Assembly: GCA_964016885.1 (NCBI GenBank)
Contig: OZ024762.1
Coordinates: forward strand, 25,606,001-25,670,000
Direction of reading: 5' to 3'
From: Eledone cirrhosa
Taxonomy: Eukaryota
DNA: 64,000 nt
Part shown: in pieces, positions 6,510 to 61,189 of the stretch
Layout: each line of letters opens with the position of its first letter
Position numbering within the stretch: position 1 is the first letter of the stretch
Program-made: the position numbers and the translations under genes
Notes under the pieces: model-generated
The model's input: only the letters and a program-made list of their open reading frames with translations
Database searches by the model: none
What the model was told of the DNA's origin: nothing

Positions 6510-7367
6510 CTATTGGGGTGATAACCCGTTTAGTTTTGGTTTAAATTTGTTAAGGAATAGATTTTCTTTGTTTATTCTTTGTTGCTGTGTGAACGAATCT
6601 GAGCACTTGTAGAAGGGGAAGATTTTAAAGTTGGGTAGTGTCATTCCTGCGCAGTTCGCAATATGGCTGCTCAAGGGGATTTTTCTTGTGTTAGCGTCCC
6701 GGATTTGTTGGCGGTGGATGGTCATTCTTTTGCGTAATGAGTGCCCGTCTGTCCTATGTAGTTGTGTTTGCACCCACCGCAAATTATTGCGTAAATCAAG
6801 TTCTCCGAGTTGCAGGTGAAATTGTTTTTTACTGTAAATGTTTGGCCATCTTTGAATGTAAATCTTTTTCCTTCAGTGAGGTAGAGGCACGTTCCACAGT
6901 TTGTTCTACCACATTTGGTAACTGTAGGGTTGAGGATTGGTTTGGGTATATTTGGTCCAGTGAGAATGCGTTTAAGTGATTTGGGTTGTCTTTTACTTTT
7001 AAGGATCTTGTGTGTTTCAAGAATAGACTTCATTTTTACATCTTTAAGTAGGATGGGGAGGTTTTTGTGTAGGTGATCAAACATTTCGGTATTTCTGGGG
7101 TTGAAAGTGGATACATATGGCAGGGTGTTGAGTGTGGTTTTCTGTTTTGGATTGTTAAGTTGATGGGGATTTAGGTGTTTTGCCCTGTCTATTCCATTGT
7201 TGATTATTTCAAGTGGAAAGGCTCTTAAGATAAGGGTGTCTTTTAGTTCCTTTAGTCTTTGCTCCCGTTTAGGTGGATCTGATACTATGGTACATATACG
7301 TTTGGCCAAATTGTAAGGAATGTTAAGTTTTGTATGTTTTGGGTGACTTGATGTGAAAAAGAGGTAT
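6510..7367 (-). pseudogene. PLE RT thumb plus GIY-YIG endonuclease, frameshift near 6738
   Basis: ORFs 6722-7309 and 6510-6782 join at YIGQTG/LRKRMT. Confidence 0.88.
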
Positions 7368-7468: not shown

Positions 7469-7539
<71 letters not shown>

Positions 7540-7546
<7 letters not shown>

Positions 7547-10500
7547 TCAGGTTATCAATAATGTAGTGATAATATATCGTTACGTTAGAGATGAACAGCG
7601 TACGTGCAGGTTTGCTCAACGAGTATAAATTATATTCCGGAGAAATGTAGAAAGGATGAATATAAAATGAAAGTGCTTTTGTTAAAAAAGGAATTTGTTA
7701 GGTATTGACATATGTTTCTGTAACAGACCGAATACCTATGTATCGCTGCTTGCGTAATCATATAATGTTAGCAAGTATTCGAAAGCAAATGTATAATCAG
7801 TTGTCACTTCTTGAGAGATTTTGGATAAACTGGATAAAATCAGAAAAATTGAAGTATTTATATTAGTAAAAGAGGAAGGAACAGAGGGGATAGAATATGA
7901 CAGATGGTAAAATAATTTACTGCTAAACAAGTATATAATGGGTTTTTAATGAGAATACCATGAGTAAATCTAAATAAGAATTTTGGGAGTGCCAATTTTA
8001 ATCTCTACTTGACCAACTGGACAGTGGACAGGGCTGGTCATTTGGTGCAGTAGTATTAATTATAAAGTGTCAATTGGGGAAGGGGGAGATTTCGATTGCT
8101 ACTAAATAACATCAATGCTAGTAGCCAGCTGGTATATGCACTAGGGAATTGAATCAAGAAATCAGAAATCTCATTTTATCTATAGTAGTTTGTATTAAAA
8201 GGTAAATAATAGAAGAGTTGATAGAATTAAGACTAATAAAGAATGTTCATATCTATTTTGACAATCAAACGGGGATAGAGACAGGCGTTCAATCCTGGTA
8301 GTATTTATAATATGAAAATGTAGATTTTAAGCGATGGTTACAGTATAACGATCGCTCTATTCTGTTATTTAATAAAATGTTTTTGGATTTCATAATACAA
8401 AATAATTCTACATTACATAATTTACAAAATTCCTGTCCATTGGATTATGGGGGGCAGTCTCTATTATATCCCATTTTAGGTGAAATTGTTGGTTATTTTC
8501 ACGCAGCTGCCAAGCCTTGTCTGCGAGTGTTGTTACATAACGCTGGTTTTCATGTTTTATCGAATAACGATGTCTATAAAGGCGTGATTTGAAGGAGGTG
8601 GCTGTAGATCCCACATAGTACCACTTCTGTCTATCCGATTCGATAGTACATTTGTATACGATGTTGCGTTCAAGACACTGATTGTTCAACGGACACATTC
8701 CTGGTTGGATACAGTTGCAATTACAATTTTGCGTTGTTGTATTGCCATGGATGGGTTGATGAGGTTGCTTATGTAGGACAGGATGTTGTTTGTTGTTTTG
8801 TGATGTTATAGCTAATGTTTTACGTGTATTGTTATGTGTTGGAAGGCGTTTATACAACCGTTTTGCGTTAAGCTTTTTTATATGTTGTTCAATATTAGGG
8901 GCGGTTGAATATGAAAGTCGAATAGTGTTAGGGTTTAAGATTTTATTATATTTATGTGATGTTGGAAAGTGTTTTCTAACTAATCGAAAGAATGTTGAGG
9001 GTAGATTGGTTTTAATAGATTTGTTATAGACCGGGTTGTACCAGATATACCCCTTACATCGCCTTCTGTTTGGTGGTGTGCGACTATTATTGTGTCTATT
9101 GCGGTAGTGTATGTATGGTGGTGATTCTGTGCTATTTCTACTCCTATGTGATTTATTTTGGGTGTTTTGGTGATCATTGACTATATACTCTATATTATCT
9201 AGGTGACCGGCTTTCCTAAGTGCATCATCATAATACTCGGCATGTTCTTTGAAGGTTTGTTGGTTGGACGATAGGCGGGAGATTCTAAGAGAAACATTTC
9301 TAGGGATGGATTTAATTATAGAGAGTGGATGGTTAGAACTCGTATTTACATATTTAAGGTTCTCATTTAGTTTATGGAACGGTTTAATCGTATCTGTATT
9401 GAGATTGAAAGTAACATCAAGGAAATTGACCTCTTTGAGGTTATATTCAAATGTAATATTTAATCCTAGTTCTTTAAAAAGTTTTCTGATATTTTTACGC
9501 ATCCTTTCTAAATTCTGGTTATTCATATGCTTAACTAATAGGAGCGCATCGTCACGGTAAATTCCACCGTGGAGATCCTTGAATTTTCCTTGTAATCTGT
9601 GGGTGATATAAATTCCCACAAGATCTGTTACTTCCGCCGAATCATTAGAACCCATAGTGATATCAAAATTAGAAGGTCTATCTTTGCGAACCCAGTAGCT
9701 ATCATCGAATTTAACTATAGTTTTTCTCGCTTCCATAATAATTTTAATTTCAGCATCCGTAAGGTCGGAATTATCCTTAGCGAACGAAAGAGCTTCATGT
9801 AGAGTATCAGGTGAAATTGAGGAATAATATTCATCAATATCAAACTGAATAAATTTTGATTTTTTCTTATCAGTAATGTTGTTAAACCATCTTATTGCTT
9901 CATGAGTGTTACCCCATAGTTTAATCTCTACTTTAACCTTAACTTGGGGGATAATTCTGTCTAGTATATATTTGCTAATTTTACCTATATCAGATTTAGA
10001 GGGGCATATAAGTCTAATATTAGGGTTAGTATCGAAGTTTACCTTGTGGTCCTTCAGGTTGAAGGATGGTATAGCTGGTGTTAAGGGTTGCGTTCTATCG
10101 TCAATACAAAGTTTTTTAACAATATCACATGCCGAGTGGTGATGTTTTTAAGTGTGGCTTCATTAGTTTTCCTGTATTTTTTATGCAATTCCTTACGGAT
10201 GAAGTTATTGTAAGTGTCCACATCCATGGTATATACGTTTGATGTTTTGTCTGCTCTAACAATAATTCCATTGGCGTTTTTTAGATTATTGAGCAGTGCC
10301 GTGATGTCATTCTGTAGTTTATTGTTCTTACGTTTTGTAAATTTGATCTCCATGATCATATCCATTAGGTCTTGTTCAAATGCATCCAAAAGTGGGTTTG
10401 AGGGTGGGTTCTTGTAAGATTTAAATCCAAATTTATCCTTGTTAAGATCCGATGTTTGGTTTATACGGCTTTTGTCAAAATGGAATGTTTTCCATCTGAT

Positions 10501-11423
10501 TCGTCGAATAAAATCATTGGTCCTTCGTATCATACCTAGAATATATTCCCTTTTTGCCTGAATAGGTATGTTTTTTAACGACATATCCAATTGGTGCCTT
10601 TCCATTTTAGAAGCGTATGCTGAATTAGTTGCTCAACTGTATAGGAGATTAATAAAATTTCAGGTTATCAATAATGTAGTGATAATATATCGTTACGTTA
10701 GAGATGAACAGCGTACGTGCAGGTTTGCTCAACGAGTATAAATTATATTCCGGAGAAATGTAGAAAGGATGAATATAAAATGAAAGTGCTTTTGTTAAAA
10801 TCCCCGTTTGATTGTCAAAATAGATATGAACATTCTTTATTAGTCTTAATTCCATCAACTCTTCTATTATTTACCTTTTAATACAAACTGCTATAGATAA
10901 AATGAGATTTCTGATTTCTTGATTCAATTCCCTAGTGCATATACCAGCTGGCTACTAGAATTGATGTTATTTAGTAGCAATCGAAATCTCCCCCTTCCCC
11001 AATTGACACTTTATAATTAATACTACTGCACCAAATGACCAGCCCTGTCCACTGTCCAGTTGGTCAAGTAGAGATTAAAATTGGCACTCCCAAAATTCAT
11101 ATTTAGATTTACTCATGGTATTCTCATTAAAAACCCATTATATACTTGTTTAGCAGTAAATTATTTTACCATCTGTCATATTCTATCCCCTCTGTTCCTT
11201 CCTCTTTTACTAATATAAATACTTCAATTTTTCTGATTTTATCCAGTTTATCCAAAATCTCTGAAGAAGTGACAACTGATTATACATTTGCTTTCGAATA
11301 CTTGCTAACATTATATGATTACGCAAGCAGCGATACATAGGTATTCGGTCTGTTACAGAAATATATGTCAATACCTAATAAATTTCTTTTTTAACAAAAG
11401 CACTTTCATTTTATATTCATCCT

Positions 11424-11430
<7 letters not shown>
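7540..11430 (-). mobile_element. Near full-length Hydra-clade-like PLE with direct partial pLTR (7540-7687 = 10654-10800) and inverted 5' copy (10800-11428 = reverse complement of ~8275-7648)
   Basis: Direct and inverted repeats read in the sequence; (TA)n on both sides; complete RT-EN reading frame. Confidence 0.92.
8289..10605 (-). pseudogene. PLE RT-GIY-YIG ORF with two frameshifts (~10140, ~8445)
   Basis: SLKNIP, FIRRIRWK, FGFKS, ADKT, FIQFDI.EYY, FDITMGS.DSAE, GIYRDD, FLDV, SNHP, CNCx5CPLx3C, VYKC..YVGS..FKSR, CKLC; TGA at 8289-8291. Confidence 0.92.
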
Positions 11431-11461
<31 letters not shown>

Positions 11462-11769
11462 CAAGAAAGAAGAGTGACATGGTTTGCTATACATTAAGGG
11501 CTTTATTCACATTGCTGACAATTGTTTCTCTGAACTGAAAGGTCTAGAGATCGCTACCCGCCTGTTTTTGCGTCAATCGATCACCAATACTCCAAGTATA
11601 AACTACATAGAAATCACCGCGTACTCGCAGCATCACTATGGAAATGTCTTGTTGAGTCAAACTTAGCCAAGCGTTAGTACCATCCACTACTCGGAGTACC
11701 TTAACTGGACTACATCTAAGTGGACTACCTATAACAATAATTTGTTATCCCGTATATATATATATATAT

Positions 11770-11961
11770 AACGAAGGAAATGTGGTAAGGAACCAGGTGG
11801 ACCATAACGCACCAAAGTACTCAATACTTAGGGTAGTAGAGTGGGTAATAGGAACGAGTAGGACCCCGACGGCTGAGCTCAAGCCGTTTCGACGGCTAAT
11901 TCTGGACTCAGAATTAGCCGTCGAAACGGCTCGAGCTCAGCCGTCGGGGTCCTACTCGTTC

Positions 11962-11965
<4 letters not shown>
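11770..11965 (-). mobile_element. Fold-back mini-element family B (PLE-type 3' end with half-hammerhead)
   Basis: Palindrome 11848-11965 containing GAAA-CGGCT..AGCCG-TC-GGGGTCC; related copies at 43067, 44750 and 19120. Confidence 0.75.
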
Positions 11966-11993
<28 letters not shown>

Positions 11994-11994
11994 G

Positions 11995-12505
11995 AATTTA
12001 TGTATACCATATTTGGTAATATACTGTATGTTTAATTAAAAACATTTTGAAGACCTTGCGCTATTATTTTAAAGTAGTGACTATGTCACTTACTTCTTTT
12101 TTGCAGCAAAGGGAGGGAGAGAAGCTGACAGATTCTGTTTCACACTCTTGGTGTTCCTCAGAGCAACGACCTGTGCCAAAAATTATAGAGGCTGGATTCT
12201 TATAGAATTCCAGTAATAATCAGGAACTGATTATACATAGCGATTGCCGGTCCAGCAAAAATTAAAAATTAGGATTGGTACTCTGAAATATCATCCAGCC
12301 TCTATAATTTTCGGCAGAGGTCGGCGAGTACTTTGCTCTGAGGAACACCAAGAGTGTGAAACAGATCTGTCAGCTTATCTCCCTTCCTTTGCTGAAACAA
12401 AGAAGTAAGTGACATAGTCACTACTTTAAAATAATAGCGCAAGGTCTTCAAAATGATTTTAATTAAACATACAGTATATTATCAAATATACTATACATAC
12501 ATTCA
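11995..12505. mobile_element. Inverted-repeat element with an HHR in each arm
   Basis: Arms ~11995-12197 and ~12293-12505; GCT-CTGAGGA-ACAC/GTGT-GAAA-CAGATCTG-TC-AGC at 12335-12374 (+) and its mirror at ~12123-12164 (-). Confidence 0.75.
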
Positions 12506-12648
12506 TATATATGTGTGTGTGTGTGTGTGTAAGTGTGTGTGAGTGTGTAAATGTTTATATATATATTTATTTATATATATATATATTTATATATATGTAT
12601 ACATATATATACATATATGTATATATATGTATACATATATATAAAATT

Positions 12649-13556: not shown

Positions 13557-15181
13557 AACGTGCCAGGACTTTTCTTCTGAGCGCTAGATGAGTGCTCTCC
13601 GCCGACAAACAAATACCATAATATCTTCAACCGCCACACGGTGAAATTTTCCTTCTCCACAGCGCCTAATATGGCCGACTACATGGCTAAAACTAACGCG
13701 GTGAAGTTGGCGCATACTGGCCGTTAACCGCGGCGAAAGAGTGACCGTCTTTCGGAGCGCGGAGAACCAACCAGGGACCTGCCCTCAAATGATAACCCGG
13801 CCCCGAGGCGACCAGAGCGCCCCCGGAGGCCGATATGGTACAACACCAAGAGGAAAACAGTGGCATGGGGGAGACAATATTGTCGGCGTTACAACACCAT
13901 GAGAACCGTGAGAGGGCCATAACAGACCGATGCCTGGTCATCGGATGCACAAGAACTGACAGCAGAACTTGTAACTGTAGAGAGGGCACCCGGTGCCCCC
14001 TACAGGGAAAATGCACGATGAAAGACGTAATATACAAGTGTGTGGTTACAACCCAAAACGCGCATCGCACCAACATTGGCGCAACATCCACGACCTTTAA
14101 ATCGCGGATGTATAATCACACGAATTCCTTCAGGGACAGGAGCGAAAGGCACTCCACTAGGTTAGCGGATCTGGTGTGGGACCTGAAAGAAAAAGGCACT
14201 CCGTACGCCCTGGAATGGAGTATCGTTCGCCACGCGAGGGAATATTCGGCCGGAAGTAGAAAGTGCCGAGTGTGCCTACACGAGGCCATGTAGATAGTCA
14301 GACTGAAGGATGACGCCGTCAACCTGAAGTCTGAAATTATCATGACATGCAGACACCAGAGAAGATGTACATTTGCAGCATGCAATCCTCCGGGTGACGC
14401 AGGCAGGGGGCATGGGAACGAGTACGCACAGACCCGATTGGCCCAACGGGAGTAGGGGACATGACGCCATGCCATGATGACGGTGTGCGACCCGTGAGGC
14501 AAACATATGTAAACCAGGGGCGCACCTGACCGAGCACACAACATTTGAAGATACTTCGCATGGGCCGGGACCGGCTAACACGGGGTCCACTGCCGCCCGG
14601 TCCTGTGCCCTAAACATATAGAACAGCACACCCCAGCCACGGTGCCATGCCCCATGGCGACCGGGACGAGCGTACCAATGAATGTATACCCCGTCAGTCG
14701 TAACTATATACTCTCCACCTTGTCCACTTTGGAACAATGAGTATTACTATCATTAAGTACCGTACTAAGAGTGAGAAATGAAATTTCGTTTCATTCTATT
14801 CCATGTATTGTTCTATTATTGTTCTGTTACTGTTACCTGTTCTACACACGGACACAGGTTTGCACCTCCTACTACCTGTGTGTAGTATGTCACATGGACA
14901 CACGCACCTTCTCCTGTGCCTCCCTCCTGTTTTTTTTATTTTACCTGTTTTTTTTTTATTTTACCTGTTTTTTTTTATTTTACCCCTCCTTTTATTCTAA
15001 CTATTTATGCAGTTACATACAGATTTTAATGTACACTAAAATATTGTAAATTTATTTACTTATTTATTTTGCTTTATTATCATATTGTGTTTATATTCGC
15101 GTGTTATTATGCGTGGACCTGTGCGTAGACATATGTTTGTGTGTGTGTGTGTGTGTAGATATGTATATATATATATATATA

Positions 15182-15520
15182 TGGAATAGAATGAAACGAA
15201 ATTTCATTTCTCACTCTTAGTACGGCACTTACTTAAATGTAAGTATGTATGTATGTATACGTACATACATATATGTATACAGGCGTACAGTAGTATGTAT
15301 ATATATACATACATGCACACATATATATATGCACGTATCGGTTTACCGAACATTTATTATAATGTTCGGTTTGTTTGTTTGTAAACAAACAAACAGCCCG
15401 AATTACGCCGTACAGTGTTTAGGCAACCACGTCACCTTTTTGTTCAACACTGACACAGGAACGATGTACTAGTTTCAAGCTTATTAGCTATCGTCAGCAT
15501 CGTATACCTTCCTGCCAGAT
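15182..15520 (-). mobile_element. Partial copy of the ~400-nt retrozyme-like unit, HHR at 15461-15503
   Basis: ACGATG-CTGACGA-TAGCTAATAAGCTT-GAAA-CTAG-TA-CATCGT; homologous to 19315-20310. Confidence 0.75.
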
Positions 15521-15972
15521 ATATATATACGTGAGTGTGTGCGGGGGGGGGGGGGTATATGGGCATGGGCGCGTGTGTGCATGAGCTTATATGCGCGTGT
15601 ATGTGCAGACATGTGCATGTATGTACATATGTGGCGGAAAATGTGTGTGTATGTGTGTATATGTATGTGTCTATGTGAATGTGCATATGTATGCATGTCT
15701 ATATATGTGTGCGTATGTACGTATAGCCACCTATGACTAGCTGTGTGTGTGGGGGTGAGTAAGCGTGCGCATATGTTTATGCGGGTATATACATATATGT
15801 ATATATATATATATGTGTATATATATATGTGCGGGTGCGGGTTTACATATATGTGGGCCTATATATGTGTGTATGTGTATCTGTGCATGCATGTAGGGGT
15901 TTATTTGCATCTCACATGTGTGCGGATGATTATATACGGAGTATATATGCTTTTTATTATTACTATTATTCT

Positions 15973-16165
15973 AGGGCGGTGGATTAACAATATCGGTAGA
16001 GGGTCGGACGCCATGCTTTGACGCATAGAGTTACGGCCCTTTCCATTCTGAGTTCAAAACCCGCCGAGGTTAACTTTGCCTTTCCTCCTTACGGGGTCGA
16101 TAAAATAAAGTACCAGTAATACACTGGGTAATTGCTGGCCTTGTGCCAAAATTAGATAAAATTAT
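15973..16165 (+). mobile_element. tRNA-derived SINE
   Basis: A-box-like head, B-box GTTCAAAAC, core GCCGAGGTTAACTTTGCCTTT..GGGGTCGATAAAATAAAGTACCAG, (ATT) tail. Confidence 0.8.
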
Positions 16166-16312
16166 TACTATTATTGTTGTTGTATTACTTTATCACATAT
16201 CCTGTGTATATATTCGTATATGTATGTATGAATCTGTGTACATGTGTGTGTGGGTATGTATATGTATATGTGTATATATATATGGGGATATATAGATATA
16301 TATATGGGGATA

Positions 16313-16359
<47 letters not shown>

Positions 16360-16921
16360 CATATTGTATATTACATTGTATATGTTATATTCTATGTTAC
16401 AGTAATTTACCGTTAGTTTATGGTATATGGTTTTTTTTATTATATAATGTATCTTTAACTTTTAATTCAAGGTTTTGTCTATATTTGTATATGTGGAAGC
16501 ACATATGTGTGCAGGCAAATATATATATATATATGTATATGATATTGTATGTTATATTTTATATATTATATTTTATGTTACAGTAATGTACCGTTAGTTT
16601 ATGGTATATTGTTTTTTATTGTATAAATAATTATTATTTACGGTTTTGTTTATACTTGTATATGTGGAAGCACATATGTATGCGGGCAAATATGAATATG
16701 TGCAGGTGTATGCATGTGGCAGCACGTGTGCGTATGCATATATAGATGTATATATGTCGGCATATGCGTGGGTGTATATATATATATGTGTGTATATGTG
16801 TCACTGTGCGTATGCATGTTAGGTTGTTGTTTTTTTGTGTATGTATATATATATATATATATATATATACGTGTGTGTATGTAATATATAGATGTATGTA
16901 TATATGTCGGCGTACGCGTGG

Positions 16922-16953
<32 letters not shown>

Positions 16954-17292
16954 GTGTATATATGTGGCTGTGCGTATGCATGTTAGGTTGTTGTTTTTGT
17001 ATATATATATATATATGTGTGCGTATGTAATGTTTGTGTACGTATGCGTATTTTGTATATATGTGTGGGCATGTATGAGTATATATATATATATGTGTAT
17101 GTATGTATGTGTATGTATGTATATATATATGTACATGCATGTGTGTGTGTGTATATGTATGTATGTGCATGTATGTGTGTATGCATATATGTGTGTATGG
17201 ACGAGTGTGTGTATATATAGTTATATAAATATATATAAGATTGGGCGTATGTATGTGTGATCGCGTATGTATGTGTGTATATACATATATAA

Positions 17293-17357
<65 letters not shown>

Positions 17358-18002
17358 GAAACGCGTAGGTTACTTCCCTTGCTTTTATCGAGAATCTCAA
17401 ATTGTAATACGTGACGTATTCTATTCTATAGCGATTAGGTCTTCAAAATGTTTATTGTAAACATACGGAATATTTTCGAATATTCTGTGTTTATCTTCAC
17501 ATATATATATATATATATGTGTGTATATGTTTGAACAGGACATGCTTATTCCAACCGGATGTATGGGGCGATGTAAGCAGCCCCCACAAGGCTTGTGGTG
17601 ATATGTATCTACAAGTGGGTGTGACTGGGTCTGTGGAGGTGAGGGAGAGAGTATGTGTGTATATAGACATATATGTATGTGGGGGTGTCTGCGCATGTTG
17701 ACGTACGTGTGTGTATGCATAAATCGGTCGGTGTCTGCATGGGTGTGTGTGTATATTGGTATGTGAGGGTGCTTATTATGAGGTGTGAACAGACGTGTGG
17801 GATGCTGAACCCAGCATGACTCCATCGAAATGTGTCGGACGGAAAATGGCTGATGACCCGTGTGGCAGTAGATACTGACCAGAACTTGTGATGACGTGGA
17901 GTAAAAACAGCCAATGGAAGCACAGAAGTGGAAGTAGGTTTTTTTGAGGGTGTTTTTTTATGATAACACCCCAGTGATAAAATTTGCTCCTAACGAAATA
18001 CT

Positions 18003-18093
18003 CGTGTCTGAATGAACCTGCAGAAGTAGAATCAGCCGGATCCATACAAGGACCACCTCTCGAGCCTCCTGCCGGAGAAACAATTGTAACACG
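18003..18093 (+). ncRNA. Type I hammerhead with 8-nt core and extended stem II (mirror copy 13135-13225, -)
   Basis: CGTGT-CTGAATGA-(61 nt)-GAAA-CAATTG-TA-ACACG. Confidence 0.7.
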
Positions 18094-18242
18094 CAATAAA
18101 TTGAGTCCAGATGCATCACTGATTTTTCGTTTTCTTTATAATATCTACACTCCACTCTGATGAATATCGAGTGCTAATTTTGGCATACCGCCTACGGAAG
18201 CACCATAGCTACACAACTATATACATATACACAACTATACAC

Positions 18243-18303
<61 letters not shown>

Positions 18304-18329
18304 CAACTATATATATATATATACACAAC

Positions 18330-18360
<31 letters not shown>

Positions 18361-18373
18361 ATACATATATATG

Positions 18374-18410
<37 letters not shown>

Positions 18411-18579
18411 GTATATATATGTATGTATATATATATATATATATACATATAGTAATAATAATAAATGTGAAGACAAAAATCCGAAAGGGGCTCGATAAGG
18501 ATAATTCGTCCCATACTTGTACCGCTAAAAATTGCAGCAGGTTTATGGGACTAAAGATTACGTATGGAGCCGAGAATAT

Positions 18580-19060
18580 TATATATAGAGTTATAAACTC
18601 AAAATAGTCTTTTATAATTAAATAGCTCATGTAATACAAATAAATATATGATAGGCGCTGTGACACATGTGCGTTCAACAACACATTTCACTCAGTCTTC
18701 TTAAGTATTTTGAAGTGAAACTTACCAATTTCTGGATACCCGCAGAAGAGCACAGGAATGGTAACTTTCATTTAATTGTTGCGAAACAAATTAAAAATGT
18801 GTCCGTATATCACGGCTATTGTCAATATAGGTTTGTTATTTTTATTGATTTATTATTTTAAATCGAGACAGGCAAACCGTATTATTTTACTTAGTATCTT
18901 TCAATCTAGCTAACTTGGTCATTTGCAATGCAAACACATGTATACTTGTATCAGTGTTTATCCCTCTCATATATTCATTTGTATTACACACCTCGGAAAC
19001 ATTCCTTTCTTTGAGCTATTTAATTGTAAAAGACTATTTGAGTTTATAACTCTATATATA
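18580..19060. mobile_element. TA-flanked element with ~50-bp terminal inverted repeats
   Basis: 18580-18629 is the reverse complement of 19012-19060. Confidence 0.55.
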
Positions 19061-19119
19061 ATATATATATATATGAGTTCAAATATAGTTTTCATTATGG
19101 AGTTTTAGCTACTACGCAA

Positions 19120-19268
19120 CCTCAGTGGATCCGAACAATCTAGCTGTTTTAACGAACAGAGCTATGCCGCCGGGGTCCTGACTCTTTTCCTATTACCCAC
19201 TTTACTAACCTAAGTATCGAGTATCCTGGTCCGTTATGGTCCACCTGTTTTCTTACCACACTTCTCTT

Positions 19269-19272
<4 letters not shown>
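19120..19272 (+). mobile_element. Diverged family B 3' end
   Basis: GGGGTCC..TTCCTATTACCCAC..TATCGAGTA..GTTATGGTCCACCTG..TTACCACA matches the 11770/44750 copies. Confidence 0.65.
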
Positions 19273-19314
<42 letters not shown>

Positions 19315-19317
<3 letters not shown>

Positions 19318-20308
19318 TATGTATACGTACATACATATATATATACAGACGTACAGTAGTATGTATATATATACATACATGCACACATATATATATGTAC
19401 GTATGGATTTACCGAACATTTATTATAATGCTCGGTTTGTTTGTAAACAAACACACATCCCAAATTAAGCCGTTCAACACTGACAAAGGAACGATGTACT
19501 AGTTTCAAGCTTATTAGCTATCGTCAGCACCGTATACCTTATTGCCAGATGATTGAACGTCTGAAAGTAAATACTTTCCTTATGCATATTAACGGCTGAG
19601 CAGCCTAATTTGCATATCGAGTGAGTTAATCGGCCGGGGTACCGAAAACGTTAAATGGAAAAAATGAAAAGACATTTCATTTCTCACTCTTAGTACGGCT
19701 GTTACTTAAATATAAGTATGTATACGTACATACATATATGTATACAGACATACAGTAGTATGTATATATATACATACATGCACACATATATATATGTACG
19801 TGTGGATTTACCGAGCACTTATTATAATGTGTATACATACTTATATTTAAGTAACAGCCGTACTAAGAGTGAGAAAGGAAATTTCGTTTCATTTTTTCCA
19901 TTTATCGTTTTCGGTGCGCCCGTCCGATTAACTGACTCGACATGCAAATTAGGCTGCTCAGCCGTTAATATGTATAAGGAAAGTATTTACTTTCAGACGT
20001 TCAATCATCTGGCAAGAAGGTATACGGTGCTGACGATAGCTAATAAGCTTGAAACTAGTACATCGTTCCTTTGTCAGTGTTGAACAAAAGGGCAACGATC
20101 GTTGCGAAACACTGTACTGCTTAATTCGGGATGTTTGTTTGTTTACAAACAAACCGAGCATTATAATACATACATATATATATATGTGTGTGCATGTATG
20201 TATATATATATACTACTGTACGTCTGTATACATATATGTATGTACGTATACATACTTATACTTTAGTAACAGCCGTACTAAGAGTGAGAAATGAAATTTC
20301 GTTATTCC

Positions 20309-20310
<2 letters not shown>
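19315..20310. mobile_element. Head-to-head pair of greater-than-unit-length copies of a ~400-415-nt HHR-containing tandem unit (retrozyme-like)
   Basis: HHR 19491-19533 (-) and 20024-20066 (+); direct repeats 19315-19430/19714-19830 and 19831-19890/20246-20305. Confidence 0.78.
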
Positions 20311-20368
<58 letters not shown>

Positions 20369-20372
<4 letters not shown>

Positions 20373-20745
20373 TTTGAGTTTATGTTGGTTGTATACCAAC
20401 ACCTCAGTATGCAGGCTGGAGCACTCGACTAAGTGCGCAGGTTGGTTTGGTTACTCCGGAGTAGTGTAAAATAAAGTTAAATAAAAGTCAAATGATTAAA
20501 ATTTAGCTTCGTTTATTACAGCTATATATATTTCAGTGACAGCCATCTTTGTCTGTGACCTCTTCAGGCAGTTTGAATTAGTATGGTATAGACAAGTACA
20601 TATGTAAACAACATATGTACTTGTCTATACCATACTAATTCAAACTGCCGGAAGAGGTCACAGCCAAAGATGGCTGTCACTGAAATATATATAGCAATAA
20701 TAAACTAAGCTAAATTTTAATCATTTTACTTTTATTTAACTTTAT

Positions 20746-20749
<4 letters not shown>
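20369..20749 (-). mobile_element. Fold-back mini-element with an HHR in each arm
   Basis: Inverted repeat 20467-20749; minus-strand HHR ACTGC-CTGAAGA-..-GAAA-TATATA-TA at 20518-20572; the plus arm has mutated CGGAAGA. Confidence 0.8.
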
Positions 20750-20782
<33 letters not shown>

Positions 20783-20786
<4 letters not shown>

Positions 20787-20967
20787 GAAAAGCTTCTACA
20801 GGACTAGAACTGTTTCATTCGTGAGAAATCATCAGGAAGCACCTGATTATTTCTCACGAATGAAACAGTTCTAGTCCTGTAGAAGCTTTTCTATATTAAA
20901 CATTTATAATCTGCTATGTATCGAGTACCTTACTTACTGTGGTTACCCCCGATTGTACAGGGAATAA

Positions 20968-20970
<3 letters not shown>
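20783..20970 (+). mobile_element. Fold-back mini-element family C with HHR
   Basis: Inverted repeat 20783-20896; GCTTC-CTGATGA-TTTCTCACGAAT-GAAA-CAG..CTG-TA-GAAGC at 20792-20840 (-). Confidence 0.8.
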
Positions 20971-21027
<57 letters not shown>

Positions 21028-21829
21028 TGTATGTTATATTTAAACTCAATTCTTTTTTTACTCGTGGTTCGAGTTTCAGTCTACTGTGATCGGCAGGCTA
21101 GACCTATCCTCTTTGGGACTGGTTCAATATTTTTTTTATAGCTAATTATTTTCATTGGTTCATCTCCAATGCAATTTATTGAAGCGTAAGATATGGTTGT
21201 TGTCGTTTCATTTTCCAAATAGTTGGTTTCTATTTATCATTGAATATCTTCGGTGATGTTTATCTGTATCGTTTTCAATTGGGCAACAAGATGTTAAAAC
21301 GGCTTCCTCCCCTCAACGTTAACCCAGAATAAAATTATCCTCCTCTTCTATATGTGATTCTGATCATATTCTAGAACAGACAGTATTCATTATCACTTTT
21401 GTTTGTTGTTAGTCCTGTAATATATTGAACATATACCTGGCTATCTATTTAAAAAAATATTCATTTAGCTGCAAATTTCGACTAAATTCGTTTAACGTAT
21501 TTCAATAAGATATTTGCATTTCAATTACTGTAAAAACAATTTAAATAAAAATAAATGAATATATTTGACATTAAATATTTGTAGTACAATAGCAAAATTG
21601 TAAAAGCGAAAATATGAAATTGCAATTTTTTTTTCTTTATAATTCTAATTATTTCTGTCTCTTATGCTATGATATTTGTGAGGGGCGGGAGGGGGGAGAA
21701 TGAATAATAGGTTCAACTGTATAGTTTTATTTTAAGTTTTAAACAACAATAACAGCAACAGCAACTATGACAATTACAACAACTACAACACGAATAAGGA
21801 ACATTCCTTGCAATGGTAACAATGATATA

Positions 21830-23949: not shown

Positions 23950-24690
23950 TAATGGTTTTTACTATAGACTCAAGACCAACAATCTTGGGGGTGAAGGGAA
24001 AATTGATTAAATCGACCCAAGTGCATTACTGGTACTTTATTTTATCGACTCCGTAAGGATGAAAGGCAAAACTAACGTCGGAGGAATTTGAACTCAGACC
24101 GTGATGGGCCGCAACTCTATGTTCTAAAGCATAGCGACCGACTCTCTACCGTTACTGCCAATCCAAAGCTGGGTATAATAATTATTTCTACTTTTGGCAC
24201 AAAGCCAGCAATTATTCCAGTACATTACTGGTACTTTATTTTATGGATGAAAGGCAAAGTTAACCTCTGCGGGATTTGAACTCAGACCATAAAGGGTCGT
24301 AACTTTTTACTGCAAAGCATGGCGTCCAACCCTCTACCGATACTGCCAATCCACCGCCCTGGATATAATAATTGTTTCTACTTTTGGCACAAGGCCAGAA
24401 ATGACCCAGTGTATTACTGGTACTTTATTTTATCGACCCCGTAAGGATGAAAGGCAAAGTTAACCTCGGCGGGATTTGAACTCAGCCACAAAGCCACAAA
24501 GCCAACAATTTGGGGTGTGAAGGGAAAGTCGATTAAATCAACCTTAGTGCATTACTGATACTTTATTTTATCGACCCAGTAATGATGAAAGGCAAAGCTG
24601 ACCTGGGCGGAATTTTAACTCAAGACAGACAGGACCATAACTATGCCGCTTAGCATGTTGTACACACTCCACCGATTCTGTCGATTAATA
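23950..24690 (-). mobile_element. Tandem cluster of ~4 tRNA-SINE copies
   Basis: Repeated CTGGTACTTTATTTTATCGACCCCGTAAGGATGAAAGGCAAAGTTAACCTCGGCGGGATTTGAACTC. Confidence 0.85.
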
Positions 24691-26365: not shown

Positions 26366-28709
26366 CCCAAATAAAAATAAAATAAAGTATTACATCGGTA
26401 GTAGCATATAAATTATATGTTAACTAAAATAAAAATTATATATTTATTTCAATAGTATATGTTAATTAGTATATGTTAATTAGGTATACAATACATAAAG
26501 CAGATATTGTATTTCATCAATAGCATAATATAATTATATGCAAATAGAAATCAAAATTAATACGCATACATATACATATACATACACATACACATATACA
26601 TACATATACACACATATATATATATATATATATATACATATATACACATATATACATACATACAGATACACATACACACACACACATACACATACACATA
26701 TACATATACATATTTTTTTCAAAAAATTGCACAGAATATATTAACTAGGTATATATCCAAAACACATCCCATTCTATGATTACATGACATTCTGCAATTC
26801 GTCTGTATAATGATACTAATTTTAAGCAAATTAAAATTAAAATTTTTAGGTTGATTAAAACTAAAACCAAATAATAAATATATTTCCAAAATGTATATTA
26901 ATTAGGTCTATAATACTAAAAATTATTTCTCTGTCATTGGATACACGATATTATTTTGTTATATTTTATCTGTAAAAGAGTTATAATAAAAGGTTTAAAT
27001 AAATTAAAATTAATCTATAAATTAAATTACTAAGTATATATTAGTAATATTTAAAGGTTTTTCACAATTTATGATTACATAATATTTTATATTCTCATCT
27101 GTAATAAAATGTTAATTAGATTAAATTTATAGGTTAACTGACATTTAAATTAAATTAATTTCTAGAATAATGTTATTAATTAGGTTTATAATATTTAAAT
27201 GTTTTTTTTAGTTTATGATTACACGATATAATTAATTCCTGTCGTTTATTTAATAAGATATCCTTAGACTTCATTATTTCAAATAGTTCTTGGGAACATA
27301 ATCTACATTCCTTTCTATTATTTTGATAAGGGGTGGCTCTTTTGAGCACACTCCAGGTCAAATCATATTTTATATTCTTATTTTTATAACTATTGATTTT
27401 TTCTGCTAGAGATGTTGTATTAGCCAGTGCGGCATTTTTAAAACTATGCTTGTGGGTATTAAACCTTGTCTTAAAATTGTTAGAGGTAGCTCCTATATAT
27501 GAGCAAATAGAATCTTTAGTTTTAACATTACATTTATAGACTATGTTGTTAACAAGACAATTCCCTTTTAATGGGCAGTTTGCTTTGTTTCTACAGTTAC
27601 ATCCTTTCGTTAATTCTGTATTTGAGGAGATATTATGGTTAATTTGATGTACTGGTGGTATACTTATGGTTTTCTTACATTTATATGCATTATATGCACT
27701 TATATTTTGTTTTATGTTATTTGTTGTAGAGTATGAGAATTTAACTGTAGACCTATTTAAGATTTGATGGTATTTGTGGTTTGGCGGGAAGTTTTTCTCA
27801 AGGATATAAAAAAATTTTTTAGCAATATTATCCTTAACTTGTAAATTAAAAGGAGCATTATACCAAGTAACTCGTCTATTACGGTTTCTATGTTGTTTAT
27901 TATTTTTATTATTTTTATAGGTTGTATCGTGATTTTTACTAGGAGGATTAATGTTAATGATCTCACCACAACTATTTTTAGTTATATTTGTAGATTTAGG
28001 TGTTTTATCTTTTTTATTAGGAGTTTTATTATTAATATTTATTATAGTTGTATGATGAGTAGTTTTTTGAGGGTTACTATACTTTATATTAGAAGATTTA
28101 GTATTTTGGGGTATATTGTGGGTGGCATTTAGGTGTGTACTTTTCATTTGGTGTTTGTTGGTAATATTATGCTGTATGCTTTCAGTATTTTTAGTAGAAG
28201 GTATATACTCTAATCTATTTTTGTGGCCACTTCTATCTAGAGCTTCATTATAAAAGGTCGCATTTTTATCAAATACATCTTGGTTAGAAGAAAGGTTAGA
28301 AATTCTAAGTGATATATTATATGCAAGGTTTTTAAGGATAGATTTAGGGTGATTAGATTGTGAGTGTATGTAATGTAAGTTTTGGTTAGGTTTATGGTAA
28401 GGTTGGTATATACCCGTAGCTAAATCTAAAGTTATATCTAGGAAATTTACTACTTTACTTGTTTTTTCAAAAGTAATATTAAGATTATAATAGTCTTTAA
28501 GGAAAGTTCTAATATGTTTTTTGTTTTTTTCGATTCTGAAAGGCTAAGGTTGTTAGAAAGAAGAAGACAGTCATCACGATATAAACCACCTTTGAGGTGG
28601 GGAAAAGAGGCATTTATGTTGAAAAGGAGAAAGAGGCCCACAAGATCAGTAATTTGGGCGGAATCGCTTGAACCCATAGTAATATCAAAAAGATTACTGT
28701 ATGTGTTTC
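26366..28709 (-). mobile_element. Inverted duplicate of PLE 28742-31086
   Basis: Near-perfect reverse complement; a 1-nt indel near 28533 breaks the ORF. Confidence 0.9.
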
Positions 28710-28773
28710 ACTTATTGAATTTCAGAATGAATACTGGACCAGAAACACATACAGTAATCTTTTTGATATTACT

Positions 28774-30276
28774 ATGGGTTCAAGCGATTCCGCCCAAATT
28801 ACTGATCTTGTGGGCCTCTTTCTCCTTTTCAACATAAATGCCTCTTTTCCCCACCTCAAAGGTGGTTTATATCGTGATGACTGTCTTCTTCTTTCTAACA
28901 ACCTTAGCCTTTCAGAAATCGAAAAAAACAAAAAACATATTAGAACTTTCCTTAAAGACTATTATAATCTTAATATTACTTTTGAAAAAACAAGTAAAGT
29001 AGTAAATTTCCTAGATATAACTTTAGATTTAGCTACGGGTATATACCAACCTTACCATAAACCTAACCAAAACTTACATTACATACACTCACAATCTAAT
29101 CACCCTAAATCTATCCTTAAAAACCTTGCATATAATATATCACTTAGAATTTCTAACCTTTCTTCTAACCAAGATGTATTTGATAAAAATGCGACCTTTT
29201 ATAATGAAGCTCTAGATAGAAGTGGCCACAAAAATAGATTAGAGTATATACCTTCTACTAAAAATACTGAAAGCATACAGCATAATATTACCAACAAACA
29301 CCAAATGAAAAGTACACACCTAAATGCCACCCACAATATACCCCAAAATACTAAATCTTCTAATATAAAGTATAGTAACCCTCAAAAAACTACTCATCAT
29401 ACAACTATAATAAATATTAATAATAAAACTCCTAATAAAAAAGATAAAACACCTAAATCTACAAATATAACTAAAAATAGTTGTGGTGAGATCATTAACA
29501 TTAATCCTCCTAGTAAAAATCACGATACAACCTATAAAAATAATAAAAATAATAAACAACATAGAAACCGTAATAGACGAGTTACTTGGTATAATGCTCC
29601 TTTTAATTTACAAGTTAAGGATAATATTGCTAAAAAATTTTTTTATATCCTTGAGAAAAACTTCCCGCCAAACCACAAATACCATCAAATCTTAAATAGG
29701 TCTACAGTTAAATTCTCATACTCTACAACAAATAACATAAAACAAAATATAAGTGCATATAATGCATATAAATGTAAGAAAACCATAAGTATACCACCAG
29801 TACATCAAATTAACCATAATATCTCCTCAAATACAGAATTAACGAAAGGATGTAACTGTAGAAACAAAGCAAACTGCCCATTAAAAGGGAATTGTCTTGT
29901 TAACAACATAGTCTATAAATGTAATGTTAAAACTAAAGATTCTATTTGCTCATATATAGGAGCTACCTCTAACAATTTTAAGACAAGGTTTAATACCCAC
30001 AAGCATAGTTTTAAAAATGCCGCACTGGCTAATACAACATCTCTAGCAGAAAAAATCAATAGTTATAAAAATAAGAATATAAAATATGATTTGACCTGGA
30101 GTGTGCTCAAAAGAGCCACCCCTTATCAAAATAATAGAAAGGAATGTAGATTATGTTCCCAAGAACTATTTGAAATAATGAAGTCTAAGGATATCTTATT
30201 AAATAAACGACAGGAATTAATTATATCGTGTAATCATAAACTAAAAAAAACATTTAAATATTATAAACCTAATTAA
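28774..30276 (+). CDS. PLE RT C-terminal half plus GIY-YIG endonuclease (open, 5'-truncated)
   Basis: MGSSDSAQITDLVG, GGLYRDD, FLDI, SNHP, WYNAPF, CNCRNKANCPLKGNC, VYKC..YIGATS..FKTRF..H, CRLC. Confidence 0.9.
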   Translation: MGSSDSAQITDLVGLFLLFNINASFPHLKGGLYRDDCLLLSNNLSLSEIEKNKKHIRTFLKDYYNLNITFEKTSKVVNFLDITLDLATGIYQPYHKPNQNLHYIHSQSNHPKSILKNLAYNISLRISNLSSNQDVFDKNATFYNEALDRSGHKNRLEYIPSTKNTESIQHNITNKHQMKSTHLNATHNIPQNTKSSNIKYSNPQKTTHHTTIININNKTPNKKDKTPKSTNITKNSCGEIININPPSKNHDTTYKNNKNNKQHRNRNRRVTWYNAPFNLQVKDNIAKKFFYILEKNFPPNHKYHQILNRSTVKFSYSTTNNIKQNISAYNAYKCKKTISIPPVHQINHNISSNTELTKGCNCRNKANCPLKGNCLVNNIVYKCNVKTKDSICSYIGATSNNFKTRFNTHKHSFKNAALANTTSLAEKINSYKNKNIKYDLTWSVLKRATPYQNNRKECRLCSQELFEIMKSKDILLNKRQELIISCNHKLKKTFKYYKPN

Positions 30277-31981
30277 TAACATTATTCTAGAAATTAATTT
30301 AATTTAAATGTCAGTTAACCTATAAATTTAATCTAATTAACATTTTATTACAGATGAGAATATAAAATATTATGTAATCATAAATTGTGAAAAACCTTTA
30401 AATATTACTAATATATACTTAGTAATTTAATTTATAGATTAATTTTAATTTATTTAAACCTTTTATTATAACTCTTTTACAGATAAAATATAACAAAATA
30501 ATATCGTGTATCCAATGACAGAGAAATAATTTTTAGTATTATAGACCTAATTAATATACATTTTGGAAATATATTTATTATTTGGTTTTAGTTTTAATCA
30601 ACCTAAAAATTTTAATTTTAATTTGCTTAAAATTAGTATCATTATACAGACGAATTGCAGAATGTCATGTAATCATAGAATGGGATGTGTTTTGGATATA
30701 TACCTAGTTAATATATTCTGTGCAATTTTTTGAAAAAAATATGTATATGTATATGTGTATGTGTATGTGTGTGTGTGTATGTGTATCTGTATGTATGTAT
30801 ATATGTGTATATATGTATATATATATATATATATATATGTGTGTATATGTATGTATATGTGTATGTGTATGTATATGTATATGTATGCGTATTAATTTTG
30901 ATTTCTATTTGCATATAATTATATTATGCTATTGATGAAATACAATATCTGCTTTATGTATTGTATACCTAATTAACATATACTAATTAACATATACTAT
31001 TGAAATAAATATATAATTTTTATTTTAGTTAACATATAATTTATATGCTACTACCGATGTAATACTTTATTTTATTTTTATTTGGGTTTCTTTTCCCTAT
31101 TACTAAATTCATTTCCTAATATTGATACCATAACGTTATTAACTTTAATTTAGTTATACTGTAATTAATAATCTACTACTGTTTGACTTCAAAATTCTGC
31201 TTCAAATATTATAAACCTAACTAATTTACACCTTAGAAATCAATATGTTGACTATCTTTGGTTTAGTTAACATATGATTAATGGTATACTTATTTATTTT
31301 GAGATGCATAGATTTTGCCTTAGTTCTTGTTTGTCGTATTTCCTAGCACTGAAAATATGTAAGAACATACATTGAATAAAGATACGGAAAATATTATATG
31401 TTTCTTGAAACATATATTTACTTTGATCCCCTTCTCCAAACCCCCCCTTTCCCCCATACTATTATCATCTGTATTTGTAAGCGTCTATGTATGAATATAT
31501 ATGTAGGTAGGTGTCTATATAGGTTTGGGTATTTATATCTAAATATAAAAATACATATATGCGCATGCAAATATGAATGTAAGATTGCGTGTGTATATAT
31601 GAGTGTACATATGTATGTATATATATGTATATATATGCATTATATATGTATGTGTATGTGAATGTGTTGTATGTATATGTGTATGTATGTGTATATATGT
31701 GTATGTATGTGTATGCTTGTATATATAGGAATATATATATATGTATATATATATATATGTATATGTATATGCGTGTGTATGTATGTATGTGTATGTGTGT
31801 TGTATATATATATGTATGTCTCTCTATTTATATGTTTATCTTCGTATCTATGTGATATATGTGTGTGTATGTGCACGTATGCATATGTATGTGTTTGTGT
31901 GTGTTTGTATGTGTGTGTGTATATATGTGTATGTGCGCACACACACATACACATATATATATGTGAGTGTGTATGTGTGTC

Positions 31982-41858: not shown

Positions 41859-42130
41859 ATTATTCTTATTATGTAATAAACAACATAAGGCAATTATTCC
41901 ATTTACCAGTGGTTTCTTAAAAGCAAAAGGTTTTGCTTTCAATCCTCAGAATGAAAAAACCAGGATTTTTCATTCTGAGGATTGAAAGCAAAACCTTTTG
42001 ATTTTAAGAAACCACTGGTAAATGGAATAATTGCCTTATGTTGTTTATTACATAATAATAATAATTAAGCTCTGTTGCATACATAGAGCACTCTTTTTTC
42101 CTGGACTTTTCCGATGGAATTACTTCATTT
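41859..42130 (+). mobile_element. Fold-back mini-element with an HHR in each arm
   Basis: Inverted repeat ~41859-42065; TTCATT-CTGAGGA-..-GAAA-CCACTGG-TA-AATGGA at 41969-42026. Confidence 0.8.
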
Positions 42131-43030: not shown

Positions 43031-43066
<36 letters not shown>

Positions 43067-43068
<2 letters not shown>

Positions 43069-43250
43069 CGAAGGAAATGTGGTAAGAAACCAGGTGGACC
43101 ATAACGCACCAAAGTACTCAATACTTAGGGTAGTAGTGTGGGTAATAGGAACAAGTAAGACCCCGACGGCTGAGCTCAAGCCGTTTCGACGGCTAATTCT
43201 GAATTAGCCGTCGAAACGGCTTGAGCTCAGCCGTCGGGGTCTTACTTGTT

Positions 43251-43255
<5 letters not shown>
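43067..43255 (-). mobile_element. Family B fold-back mini-element
   Basis: Homologous to 11770-11965; palindrome centred near 43200. Confidence 0.78.
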
Positions 43256-43308
<53 letters not shown>

Positions 43309-44586
43309 TATATGAATGTAAAACATATACATATATATATATGTATTCTATTGGCACTTTTCATTGGGTTTTTCCACTTTCGACTGATGTGGTGAATTTC
43401 CTGGCTGCGCGCCGGGCGCTCGGAAAGTTCAGCCTTCCTCGAGTGCTTGGAAAAATCAATTTTCCCCTCTGTCGGTAAACGAAACTACTCGGAGCGGAGC
43501 GATTTACCCCGGGGCCCGCCGCACCGCCTGTTTTGACCGCCACATTATACTCATACCTATAAACTCTAGGCTTAGGCATAACTGTTAGCTGTATCATGCC
43601 TCCCTCTGCTGGCACGTAAATAAACCCCCTGTGAATTAATAGTATTCGTTTGGTACAGACGATGGCCTGTAGAAGATGGTTGATTTCCCGCTAGCACAAT
43701 CGGAACCTATCGCAGTTTAGTTCCTAGAGTACTCGCAAAAATGTATTTCCATTTATTTCGCTAGACTCGCTAGATACCACTCGAAATTGTCTGGCACGTG
43801 GTCAGGAGGTGCTGGCTGGGGTTTACAATCGAAGGCTTCTATCTTTACTCTAGATCCCACCTTGATAACTTATCGAGATTCCCTATAATACACTTAAACT
43901 TTTTCATATAAGACTCTCTCTGTAATTTCATTAAATAAGTCTCGCAACACAAACCTTTAATTTTCTATTAATTTTCTAATAATGTAATTTCATCCTATAA
44001 CTCTTAACATAAGTTAACGTTCCAATTTTCTGTTCACACATTAGACTATACAGACACCCATATATATGCCTTTGTTAAAATATGGGTTCTTTGGAATAAC
44101 ATTTTTCGCGGCGTCTTCTAGCATGTCTGTAGTGTGACCCTTGCGCTGACTTTTCTACTTTCTTTCTTTCTTTCTTCTCTTTTGTTATTCTCTGACGGAG
44201 AGGTGGTAGTACATTATAAGCCTTCGCCCCCTCACCAGATGGTCATTAGTAGACCGAGGTGAAAGCAGCTAGTTGCTCAGTCGTCCTCTCTGTCTCTGAT
44301 TTCGGACCCATGGATTTTATATATTCCTTTGTTATATTTTGAATACCTGATGATATCACCGGATTCCTACGGAACCCGGTCCTTGAAATGATCATAGTAT
44401 AATAAACTTTTCCGGGATTTACACCAGTCCAGCCTCCTGTTATTTTAATTATAATAATTATCTCCGTATTAGCACCACCAACTACACAAACGAAGACGGG
44501 TGAACTGCACTGAGTACTTTCCATAATATTACATCACGATTGACCATACGGAATGACCAATTCTATATCCAGTGGTGAACAAACAA

Positions 44587-44686
44587 TCCCGCCGAGGTTA
44601 ACTTTGCCTTTCATCCTTACGGGGTCGATAAAATAAAGTACCAGTAATGCACTGGGATAATCGCTGGCCTTGTGCCTAAAGTAGAA

Positions 44687-44690: not shown

Positions 44691-45064
<374 letters not shown>

Positions 45065-51952: not shown

Positions 51953-53023
51953 GCAAAAGACGAACAGAAAATATAAAGCAAACGACAGAGTACCAATAAC
52001 TTTCTGGCGTGGATTTAATCGATGTTCCCTTCTCCACAAATTGCTGGCCTTTTGACTAAAGTAGACACAATTATTATTATTATTATTGGACGCACATGTA
52101 TGAAGACGTACAAATCTTCGTGGGAAAAGTTTCGTAACTTTAAGCTGTTTTAAAGTAACATTTTTTGTATTTTCTTGTCGTTAACGAAACATAAGGTACC
52201 CACCTAGGTATCAAGGGAGGGATACTCTCAATATTCGGGATTTAAGCCCGAATATTCAGATTTATTTGTTAAAACATCGAAAAAATTCGCTTCCACACCA
52301 AGACAAAAAAAATGGAAATATTCGACCTTGAAACGGTAAACAACGTTGAGGTCAAAAGTTCAAAAGCAGCCATTGTAGATTTCACCACAACTACGACTAC
52401 TACGGACATATCTGTCGATATTTCACTGAATGTGAAGGCAAAACTCAAATGCTACCATCACAACCGCTCCCTTCTGTGTTAGCAGCAGTATCATCAGAAA
52501 ACCCCATCACCACCACCACCACCACAACAACAACATCAACTCACAGCAACAACGACAATAACACCGACAGCTTCAATGTAAACACGGATGGCGGTGGCAA
52601 CAGCAACAACAGACAAAATAACAACAACAACAACACCAATAACATCAGCAAGAACGACAACACCAACAACAAGAGCAACAGAGGCACCACATTTGCTGCA
52701 GCAGCAGCAAAAACAAAACGCTAATTGAATATTGATATTAGCGATAAAGACGAACGGTTGGCCCAGGCGTGGAGGTTAATTAAACGGGAGAAGTCCTGGC
52801 AAACATGACCATGCCGGACGGGGCAGTAGCGGCCATGCAAAGGAGGACGGTGTACTTTCGATGTATTTCGGTGCAGACACGCAAAGTGGAACTTGCCAGC
52901 CAAGCGGAGATCGAGGCTGCTTTGGAGTGCATCGGAAGTGACATAGAGTATAAAGCAAGGGCCAAATAGTTCGGTACCACCTCGGTACTGTTCAAAACCG
53001 AGGCGTTTGCTATTGAGCACTCG

Positions 53024-54217: not shown

Positions 54218-54306
54218 ACTCCACCAACCATGGAGGTCGAACCACCCGACCTTCACAAGACCCTGGGAGGTAAGTAAACATTCCCTCTCTCTTATAGCTT
54301 GCCAAC

Positions 54307-61180: not shown

Positions 61181-61189
61181 TGTATGTAT

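Follow-up and report, generated by a model that had tools for sequence, protein, structure and literature searches.

A retrozyme-like, probably non-autonomous unit of about 400 nt, likely inserted by a PLE, in a one-side-tailed fold-back of Eledone cirrhosa

Non-LTR retrozymes of metazoans are described in PMC7229834 as tandem repeats expressed as circles, with PLEs proposed as their movers, and the background given in a preliminary description of the present locus matches this account. In bioRxiv 10.64898/2026.07.22.740005, retrozymes are linked to pLTRs, solo copies are described, two consecutive ribozyme units are stated to be required for an active element, and the mechanism of mobilisation is treated as still open. 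The published proposal that animal retrozymes are mobilised by PLEs draws on the co-occurrence of the two and on likeness to pLTRs, for the most part in vertebrates. For PLEs, partial tandems, an adjacent inverted truncated copy, and a 30–40-bp tail at one end have been reported, together with (TA)n as the target of Hydra PLEs and non-autonomous PLEs in algae (PMC8557442); the head-to-head layout occurs likewise in rotifers (PMC3846280). In vitro, AT-rich DNA is cut by a PLE protein on both strands, each of which is then extended; reverse transcription starts at two internal RNA sites whose spacing gives the tail length, and ribozyme cleavage is not required (PMC11167929). Opposite-strand ribozyme pairs 100–700 bp apart were assigned to truncated PLEs in PMC4209133. 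No cephalopod retrozyme and no tailed, inverted, non-autonomous ribozyme PLE was found in a literature search that took in few subscription papers and part of the supplements.

The window analyzed here is a stretch of 64,000 nt (64 kb) of Eledone cirrhosa DNA (contig OZ024762.1, positions 25,606,001 to 25,670,000, forward strand), and all coordinates refer to it. The fold-back insertion consists of two arms, A and B, with the following features:

19272..19315, no strand: (TA)n target, left, on the arm A side
19315..19829, minus strand: arm A, 515 nt, period 399, 1.29 units
19491..19533, minus strand: type I hammerhead of A, predicted to cleave at 19497, all 43 nt the same as in B
19830..20308, plus strand: arm B, 479 nt, period 415, 1.15 units
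20024..20066, plus strand: type I hammerhead of B, predicted cleavage 3' of 20060
20261..20308, plus strand: one-sided tail, a copy of the first ~55 nt of the unit (from putative RT start site 1 to site 2) with a 6–7-nt deletion
20309..20368, no strand: (TA)n target, right, on the arm B side

Arm A starts with a 5'-truncated unit end of about 116–119 nt, followed by a single complete 399-nt unit, and arm B is made of about 15 nt of unit end, a complete 415-nt unit, and a tail of 48 nt. The arms abut 5'-to-5' at 19829/19830 with zero spacer, and the measured lengths agree with the ~1.3-mer on the minus and ~1.15-mer on the plus strand that had been described as lying head-to-head. At its 3' end (site 1), arm A has no tail and is flush with (TA)n; arm B ends at site 2, within (TA)n, its tail stopping where a predicted hairpin has its 3' base. 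The arms are 95.7% identical (ungapped columns), with a 32-nt block missing from arm A and a 15-nt block missing from arm B; on these grounds, a fold-back read artefact was excluded. The repeated parts within an arm differ at 5/119 positions (A) and at 5/56 positions plus an indel (B), against 4.3% between A and B. Since divergence within the arms is about that between them, these differences neither require nor exclude a circular template.

The insertion is of PLE type in that a partial tandem is joined head-to-head to an inverted 5'-truncated arm, and in that one end only is tailed (48 nt on B, 0 on A). This signature, with its (TA)n target, supports the earlier suggestion that a PLE RT was the likely copier. 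Retrozyme insertions, when they have a TSD, have one of more than 4 bp; both ends of this insertion fall inside (TA)n. The left (TA)n also terminates a repeat of an unrelated family (19159–19271), whose tail is 77 nt long, and the right one terminates the 98-nt tail of a fold-back at 20467–20749.

With 399 and 415 nt and a GC content of 35–36%, the unit is within the range given for retrozymes (150–450 nt, non-coding, GC under 50%). The three sense frames of A and B were checked and contained no recognisable coding or endonuclease remnant, nor did the unit contain the ORF of an autonomous PLE, with RT and, at the C-terminus, a GIY-YIG endonuclease. Because the end-to-start period is ~400 nt and an endonuclease remnant is lacking, the template of the insertion appears to have been a mini-element already. 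An internal block of ~115 nt is TA/CA-rich, as are both ends of the insertion. Predicted circular folding gave z = −5.0 for B and −7.3 for A (67% of positions paired), and z = −3.7 and −4.4 when the TA-rich block was left out. The 3' ends of coding PLEs gave +0.3 to +0.9 in four folds, and other controls −0.3 to −2.8. By these predictions, self-pairing is retrozyme-like in strength; it is no proof of selection on the sense RNA because the antisense strand folds almost equally well (z = −4.6).

An octamer motif was observed at 19942–19949 and 19608–19615, in both full units, within a predicted hairpin. An octamer of this kind, as part of an snRNA-type promoter, is known from newt satellite 2. 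As a promoter candidate it was rejected for weak statistics (8 seen vs 5 expected in the window; expectation per unit, 0.03), and the literature search found no support for an octamer in such units.

Intact hammerhead cores were located by descriptor scan at +20030, −19527, and −15497, which confirmed, in each arm, the description of a non-coding unit with one intact HHR. The strict descriptor had five matches in the window, three of them from the unit, and none in any of 40 block-shuffled windows. Rfam returned no gathering-score match in the window; at E ≤ 10 for 14000–21500, no hammerhead was among the matches listed (150 of 193), nearly all of which were miRNA-type hairpin models and every one below the cut-off. 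Stem I has 6 bp, stem II has 4 bp over a U.U mismatch at its base, and the position of stem III is occupied by a loopless 6-nt perfect palindrome. Intramolecular closure of the palindrome would cost ~5 kcal/mol in the model, against −6.8 kcal/mol for the pairing of two copies; ribozymes with such a stem III are described as functioning as dimers (PMC4209133).

Across the three ribozyme copies, the sole change is a G.U pair of stem I that becomes A-U in the third copy, C (see below). The excess of conservation over the flanks was not significant (variable columns, 1/43 vs 17/175; p = 0.09). By an eye count of File S2 in PMC8557442, the U.U layout is present in 14 of the 26 rows for the Hydra clade, 11 of the 14 from one species. 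As the axolotl retrozyme HHR_Amex2 (PMC7229834) has the U.U feature too, it cannot separate a retrozyme from a Hydra PLE. Other type I hammerheads with a palindromic stem III were seen at +2561, +49857, and −62778, those at 2561 and 49857 in one common repeat (81% over 475 nt).

Outside the fold-back, the unit is represented in the window by the following:

15182..15520, minus strand: copy C, 339 nt, 5'-truncated, one intact hammerhead, TA runs on both sides
15503–15461, minus strand: hammerhead of C, intact core
14753..14807, plus strand: fragment D, tail only (~55 nt from the unit start), subfamily of C

The further partial copy noted before at 15182–15520 was borne out, C being 92–93% identical to A and to B, and fragment D (14753–14807) is an additional copy. 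The tail of C finishes at site 2. D covers roughly site 1 to site 2, with similarity extending a few bases beyond, and is placed immediately 3' of a remnant of a Hydra-type PLE that is oriented likewise. The ends of A, B, and C are in TA runs, the target of the Hydra clade; those of D are not. The full unit is known from a single insertion event, and C alone fits the 3' end of a longer element.

The 5' ends all differ (19829, 19830, and 15520), and for these the claim of different start points stands. It does not stand for the 3' ends: B and C end at the identical unit position (site 2) and A ~50 nt upstream (site 1). Arm B starts ~15 nt before site 1. The copies are thus not circularly permuted at random, since they share 3' ends at two sites and vary only at the 5' end. 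A small hairpin is predicted around site 1, which falls in its loop, and a longer one has its 3' base at site 2. The chance of two of three (TA)n-flanked ends coinciding was estimated at ~6%, counting only the 48 of 415 positions that begin a 3-nt TA/AT run. The fixed-end argument, taken from the unit's own copies only, is modest. That the arm B tail came from a template of C/D type, in which case a monomeric circle would be ruled out, was considered and rejected, as the apparent sign of it did not survive realignment: two diagnostic columns place the tail with A and B, and one contrary character hinges on gap placement.

A coding control is present ~8 kb from the fold-back, with the same anatomy at eight times the size:

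7539..11431, minus strand: coding Hydra-clade PLE, main arm plus inverted arm, (TA)n on both sides

Its main arm comprises 1.05 units, the first 42 nt repeating the element's end, and carries a 104-nt tail; the inverted arm (632 nt) is tailless. Assignment to the Hydra clade was by motifs, namely RWK and DKT (10081–10632) and CxCX5C and YRDD (8408–10147), with the clade as defined in section 11 of PMC8557442. The element looks nearly full-length and young, with the ORF split near 10081–10147, the inverted arm 98.6% identical, and the direct repeat identical at 149/149 positions; at its 3' end, a hammerhead core is visible in its second half only. PLE remnants are dense across the window. A search with one window PLE ORF gave 393 relatives with identities up to 45%, one of them from Argonauta hians; Pfam assigned no family to any of 17 ORF fragments, and the PDB sequence search gave no match. 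PLE identity is accordingly based on the motifs and, for some homologues, on RT domains that had been precomputed.

One-sided tails were also found in other repeats. Among 12 further fold-backs, hand-picked from the repeat comparisons of the window, nine had one arm flush with a microsatellite and an extension of 64–130 nt on the other, two were flush on both sides, and one on neither. Three fold-backs of one repeat family had tails of 77, 77, and 77 nt. That family is present in four copies (11767–11965, 43064–43255, 44749–44958, and about 19159–19275); three are the fold-backs with the 77-nt tail, and the fourth terminates at the (TA)n of arm A.

Several further observations concern the surrounding DNA. 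Unrelated short microsatellite fold-backs at 11986–12512, 41859–42065, 20467–20749, and 20782–20896 bear hammerhead motifs, intact or decayed, on their opposite strands. A pair of inverted Hydra-type PLE copies at 26366–31086 (99.6% identical over 4.7 kb) begins at an N gap and is either a very young insertion or an assembly artefact. By eye, 52970–57600 looks like a broken LINE-like element with an ORF1-like region and endonuclease- and RT-like fragments; three of its fragments scanned with Pfam gave no match. A dispersed SINE-like repeat of ~200 nt has many copies (15966–16167, 24017–24676, 44585–44685, and 59928–60701), and the window contains no tRNA gene. From the ORF list, also by eye, 6510–7366 (minus strand) looks like a second PLE type and 60842–61330 (minus strand) like the restriction-like endonuclease of a non-LTR element.

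As to the suggested search for linkage to a PLE ORF, the unit core (19910–20165) aligned with all nine PLE-flanking stretches tested in the window no better than shuffles did; D adjoins a Hydra-type remnant, which has coding homology at 13557–14389 within a GC-rich remnant spanning 13557–14750. With the EN fragment next to D as query, no homologue was obtained among longer proteins. D could be the tail of the adjoining Hydra-type element, which would name the partner, or a stray insertion. Two motifs were absent from the supplement of PMC8557442, two exact patterns had no match in bacterial and archaeal genomes, and phage blastn gave no match.

The unit is best explained as a non-autonomous, retrozyme-like mini-element that was probably moved by a PLE, most plausibly of the Hydra clade, from an uncut RNA of more than unit length. 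A classical non-LTR retrozyme, in which multimer loci give rise to a ~400-nt circular RNA that served as the template of A and B, would share the PLE enzyme with this explanation and differ in the template. Unit size, GC content, the 6-bp stem I, the 4-bp stem II, and self-pairing fit metazoan retrozymes; both arms cross the end-to-start junction, the similar divergence within and between arms is compatible with identity at insertion, and circular templates have been proposed for PLEs generally (PMC4209133). A lineage that repeatedly yields greater-than-unit copies would also need tandem or circular templates somewhere. However, the multimer search proposed in the preliminary description gave no same-strand pair of ribozymes and no tandem of two or more consecutive ribozyme-bearing units within the 64-kb window, each arm having one ribozyme, and the 3' ends are confined to two sites without scatter. 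The greater-than-unit anatomy, which had been taken as the sign of a circular template and a ~400-nt circRNA, does not carry that conclusion, as the coding PLE at 7539–11431 has it too and the fixed 3' ends are explicable by internal RT starts on uncut RNA (PMC11167929). Uncut RNA was the main substrate in the sole PLE studied in vitro in that paper, and self-cleavage in vitro was reported for one of nine Xenopus retrozyme dimers (bioRxiv 10.64898/2026.07.22.740005). The circular template is regarded as unlikely for A and B. Somewhat more doubtful still is a combined reading, that a retrozyme-like RNA with the full PLE insertion signature has its tail, as the RT-loading leader, in common with the PLE neighboring D and is also expressed as circles from multimers. 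If true, the anatomy of the insertion would itself be direct evidence for the movement of animal retrozymes by PLE proteins, with the partner named and a 400-nt minimal substrate containing two predicted RT start sites.

That the unit is a one-off internal deletion derivative, or just the pLTR, of a coding PLE, with no independent family, is considered very unlikely. The ribozyme layout resembles that of Hydra-clade pLTR ribozymes, and several Hydra elements likewise have the ribozyme ~200 nt from the end. D directly follows a Hydra-type PLE remnant, beginning near site 1, and a coding element could have had C and D as its 3' ends. Against this, the end-to-start period is 399–415 nt in both arms with no ORF remnant, the nine PLE-flanking stretches tested show no similarity to the unit, and the folding of the unit is much stronger than that of the 3' ends tested from coding PLEs. 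The possibility, raised earlier, that the unit is never more than the pLTR of a coding PLE can be set aside for the A/B insertion, where the end joins the unit's own start with no ORF between. The least credible explanation, and a highly improbable one, is that DNA rich in microsatellites was locally duplicated and inverted, or that the assembly produced an artefact: TA/CA-rich sequence at both ends and in the internal block would favor it, as would the near-perfect inversion beside an N gap elsewhere in the window (26366–31086), but the arms differ by arm-specific indels at 95.7% identity, the independent copy C has TA flanks of its own, and the one-sided tail follows a pattern common to unrelated elements.

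Under the preferred explanation, insertion from an uncut RNA by a PLE, the source locus would be elsewhere, would contain at least ~1.3–1.45 units, probably in tandem, and would be transcribed. A PLE RT/GIY-YIG protein would bind the RNA near the unit start and nick both (TA)n strands, and each nick would prime cDNA synthesis from either of two internal start sites separated by ~50 nt, a start at site 2 giving the tailed arm B and a start at site 1 the tailless arm A. The cDNAs would stop at variable points and their ends would be joined, giving a head-to-head fold-back. The two-start-site mechanism was demonstrated for an element of the Poseidon clade, not the Hydra clade, and RT start sites 1 and 2 were deduced here from three ends. 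The tails of 48–55 nt are longer than the 30–40 bp in print, although 64–130 nt is usual in the window, and no autonomous partner was found among the nine PLE-flanking stretches tested in the window, which limits this explanation. Serial twin priming on one long RNA was not adopted, as other fold-backs in the window overlap by 50–300 nt.

Circles are not needed to explain the A/B insertion. The locus cannot yield a doubly cleaved monomer because each arm has a single ribozyme and the arms are on opposite strands; a read-through transcript would form a long hairpin. The ribozyme, with its palindromic stem III, would cleave efficiently only as a dimer, and copies with one ribozyme, A, B, and C among them, are probably dead ends. 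A multimer source locus elsewhere could give rise to circles.

Elements of this kind are known, so the finding is useful to the specialist more than surprising; the family is probably undescribed. The locus adds insertion anatomy as a new type of evidence, with a coding control adjacent, and two RT start sites are predicted at nucleotide level that can be checked genome-wide and in vitro.

Compared with metazoan non-LTR retrozymes (PMC7229834; bioRxiv 10.64898/2026.07.22.740005), the unit is similarly a non-coding sequence of 150–450 nt with GC under 50% and a type I hammerhead, with strong predicted self-pairing and PLEs as the proposed mobilisers, and mussel retrozyme units (350–390 nt) are near it in size. 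It differs in having no tandem of ribozyme-bearing units in the window, on account of which it is not filed as a retrozyme proper, in being inserted as a one-side-tailed fold-back, and in being known from DNA alone. With Hydra-clade EN+ PLEs (PMC8557442), it shares the partial tandem, the inverted 5'-truncated arm, the one-sided tail, (TA)n, and a hammerhead of similar layout near the 3' end. Unlike them, it has no RT-GIY-YIG ORF, a period of ~0.4 kb instead of 2–3 kb, a loopless 6-nt palindrome as stem III, and no match to the PLE flanks of the window. MRC1, of the Chlamys clade (PMC8557442), is likewise non-coding, forms pLTR-like partial tandems, and depends on a PLE protein; however, MRC1-type elements come from algae and have a 3' end that generally matches an autonomous family, whereas the Eledone unit is animal, ribozyme-bearing, and partnerless in the window. 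Poseidon PAc of Anolis (PMC11167929) resembles it in two fixed ends with a short tail between them, AT-rich targets, and stem-loops predicted at the end sites, but PAc is coding, belongs to another clade, and has start sites that are inside the ORF and were mapped in vitro.
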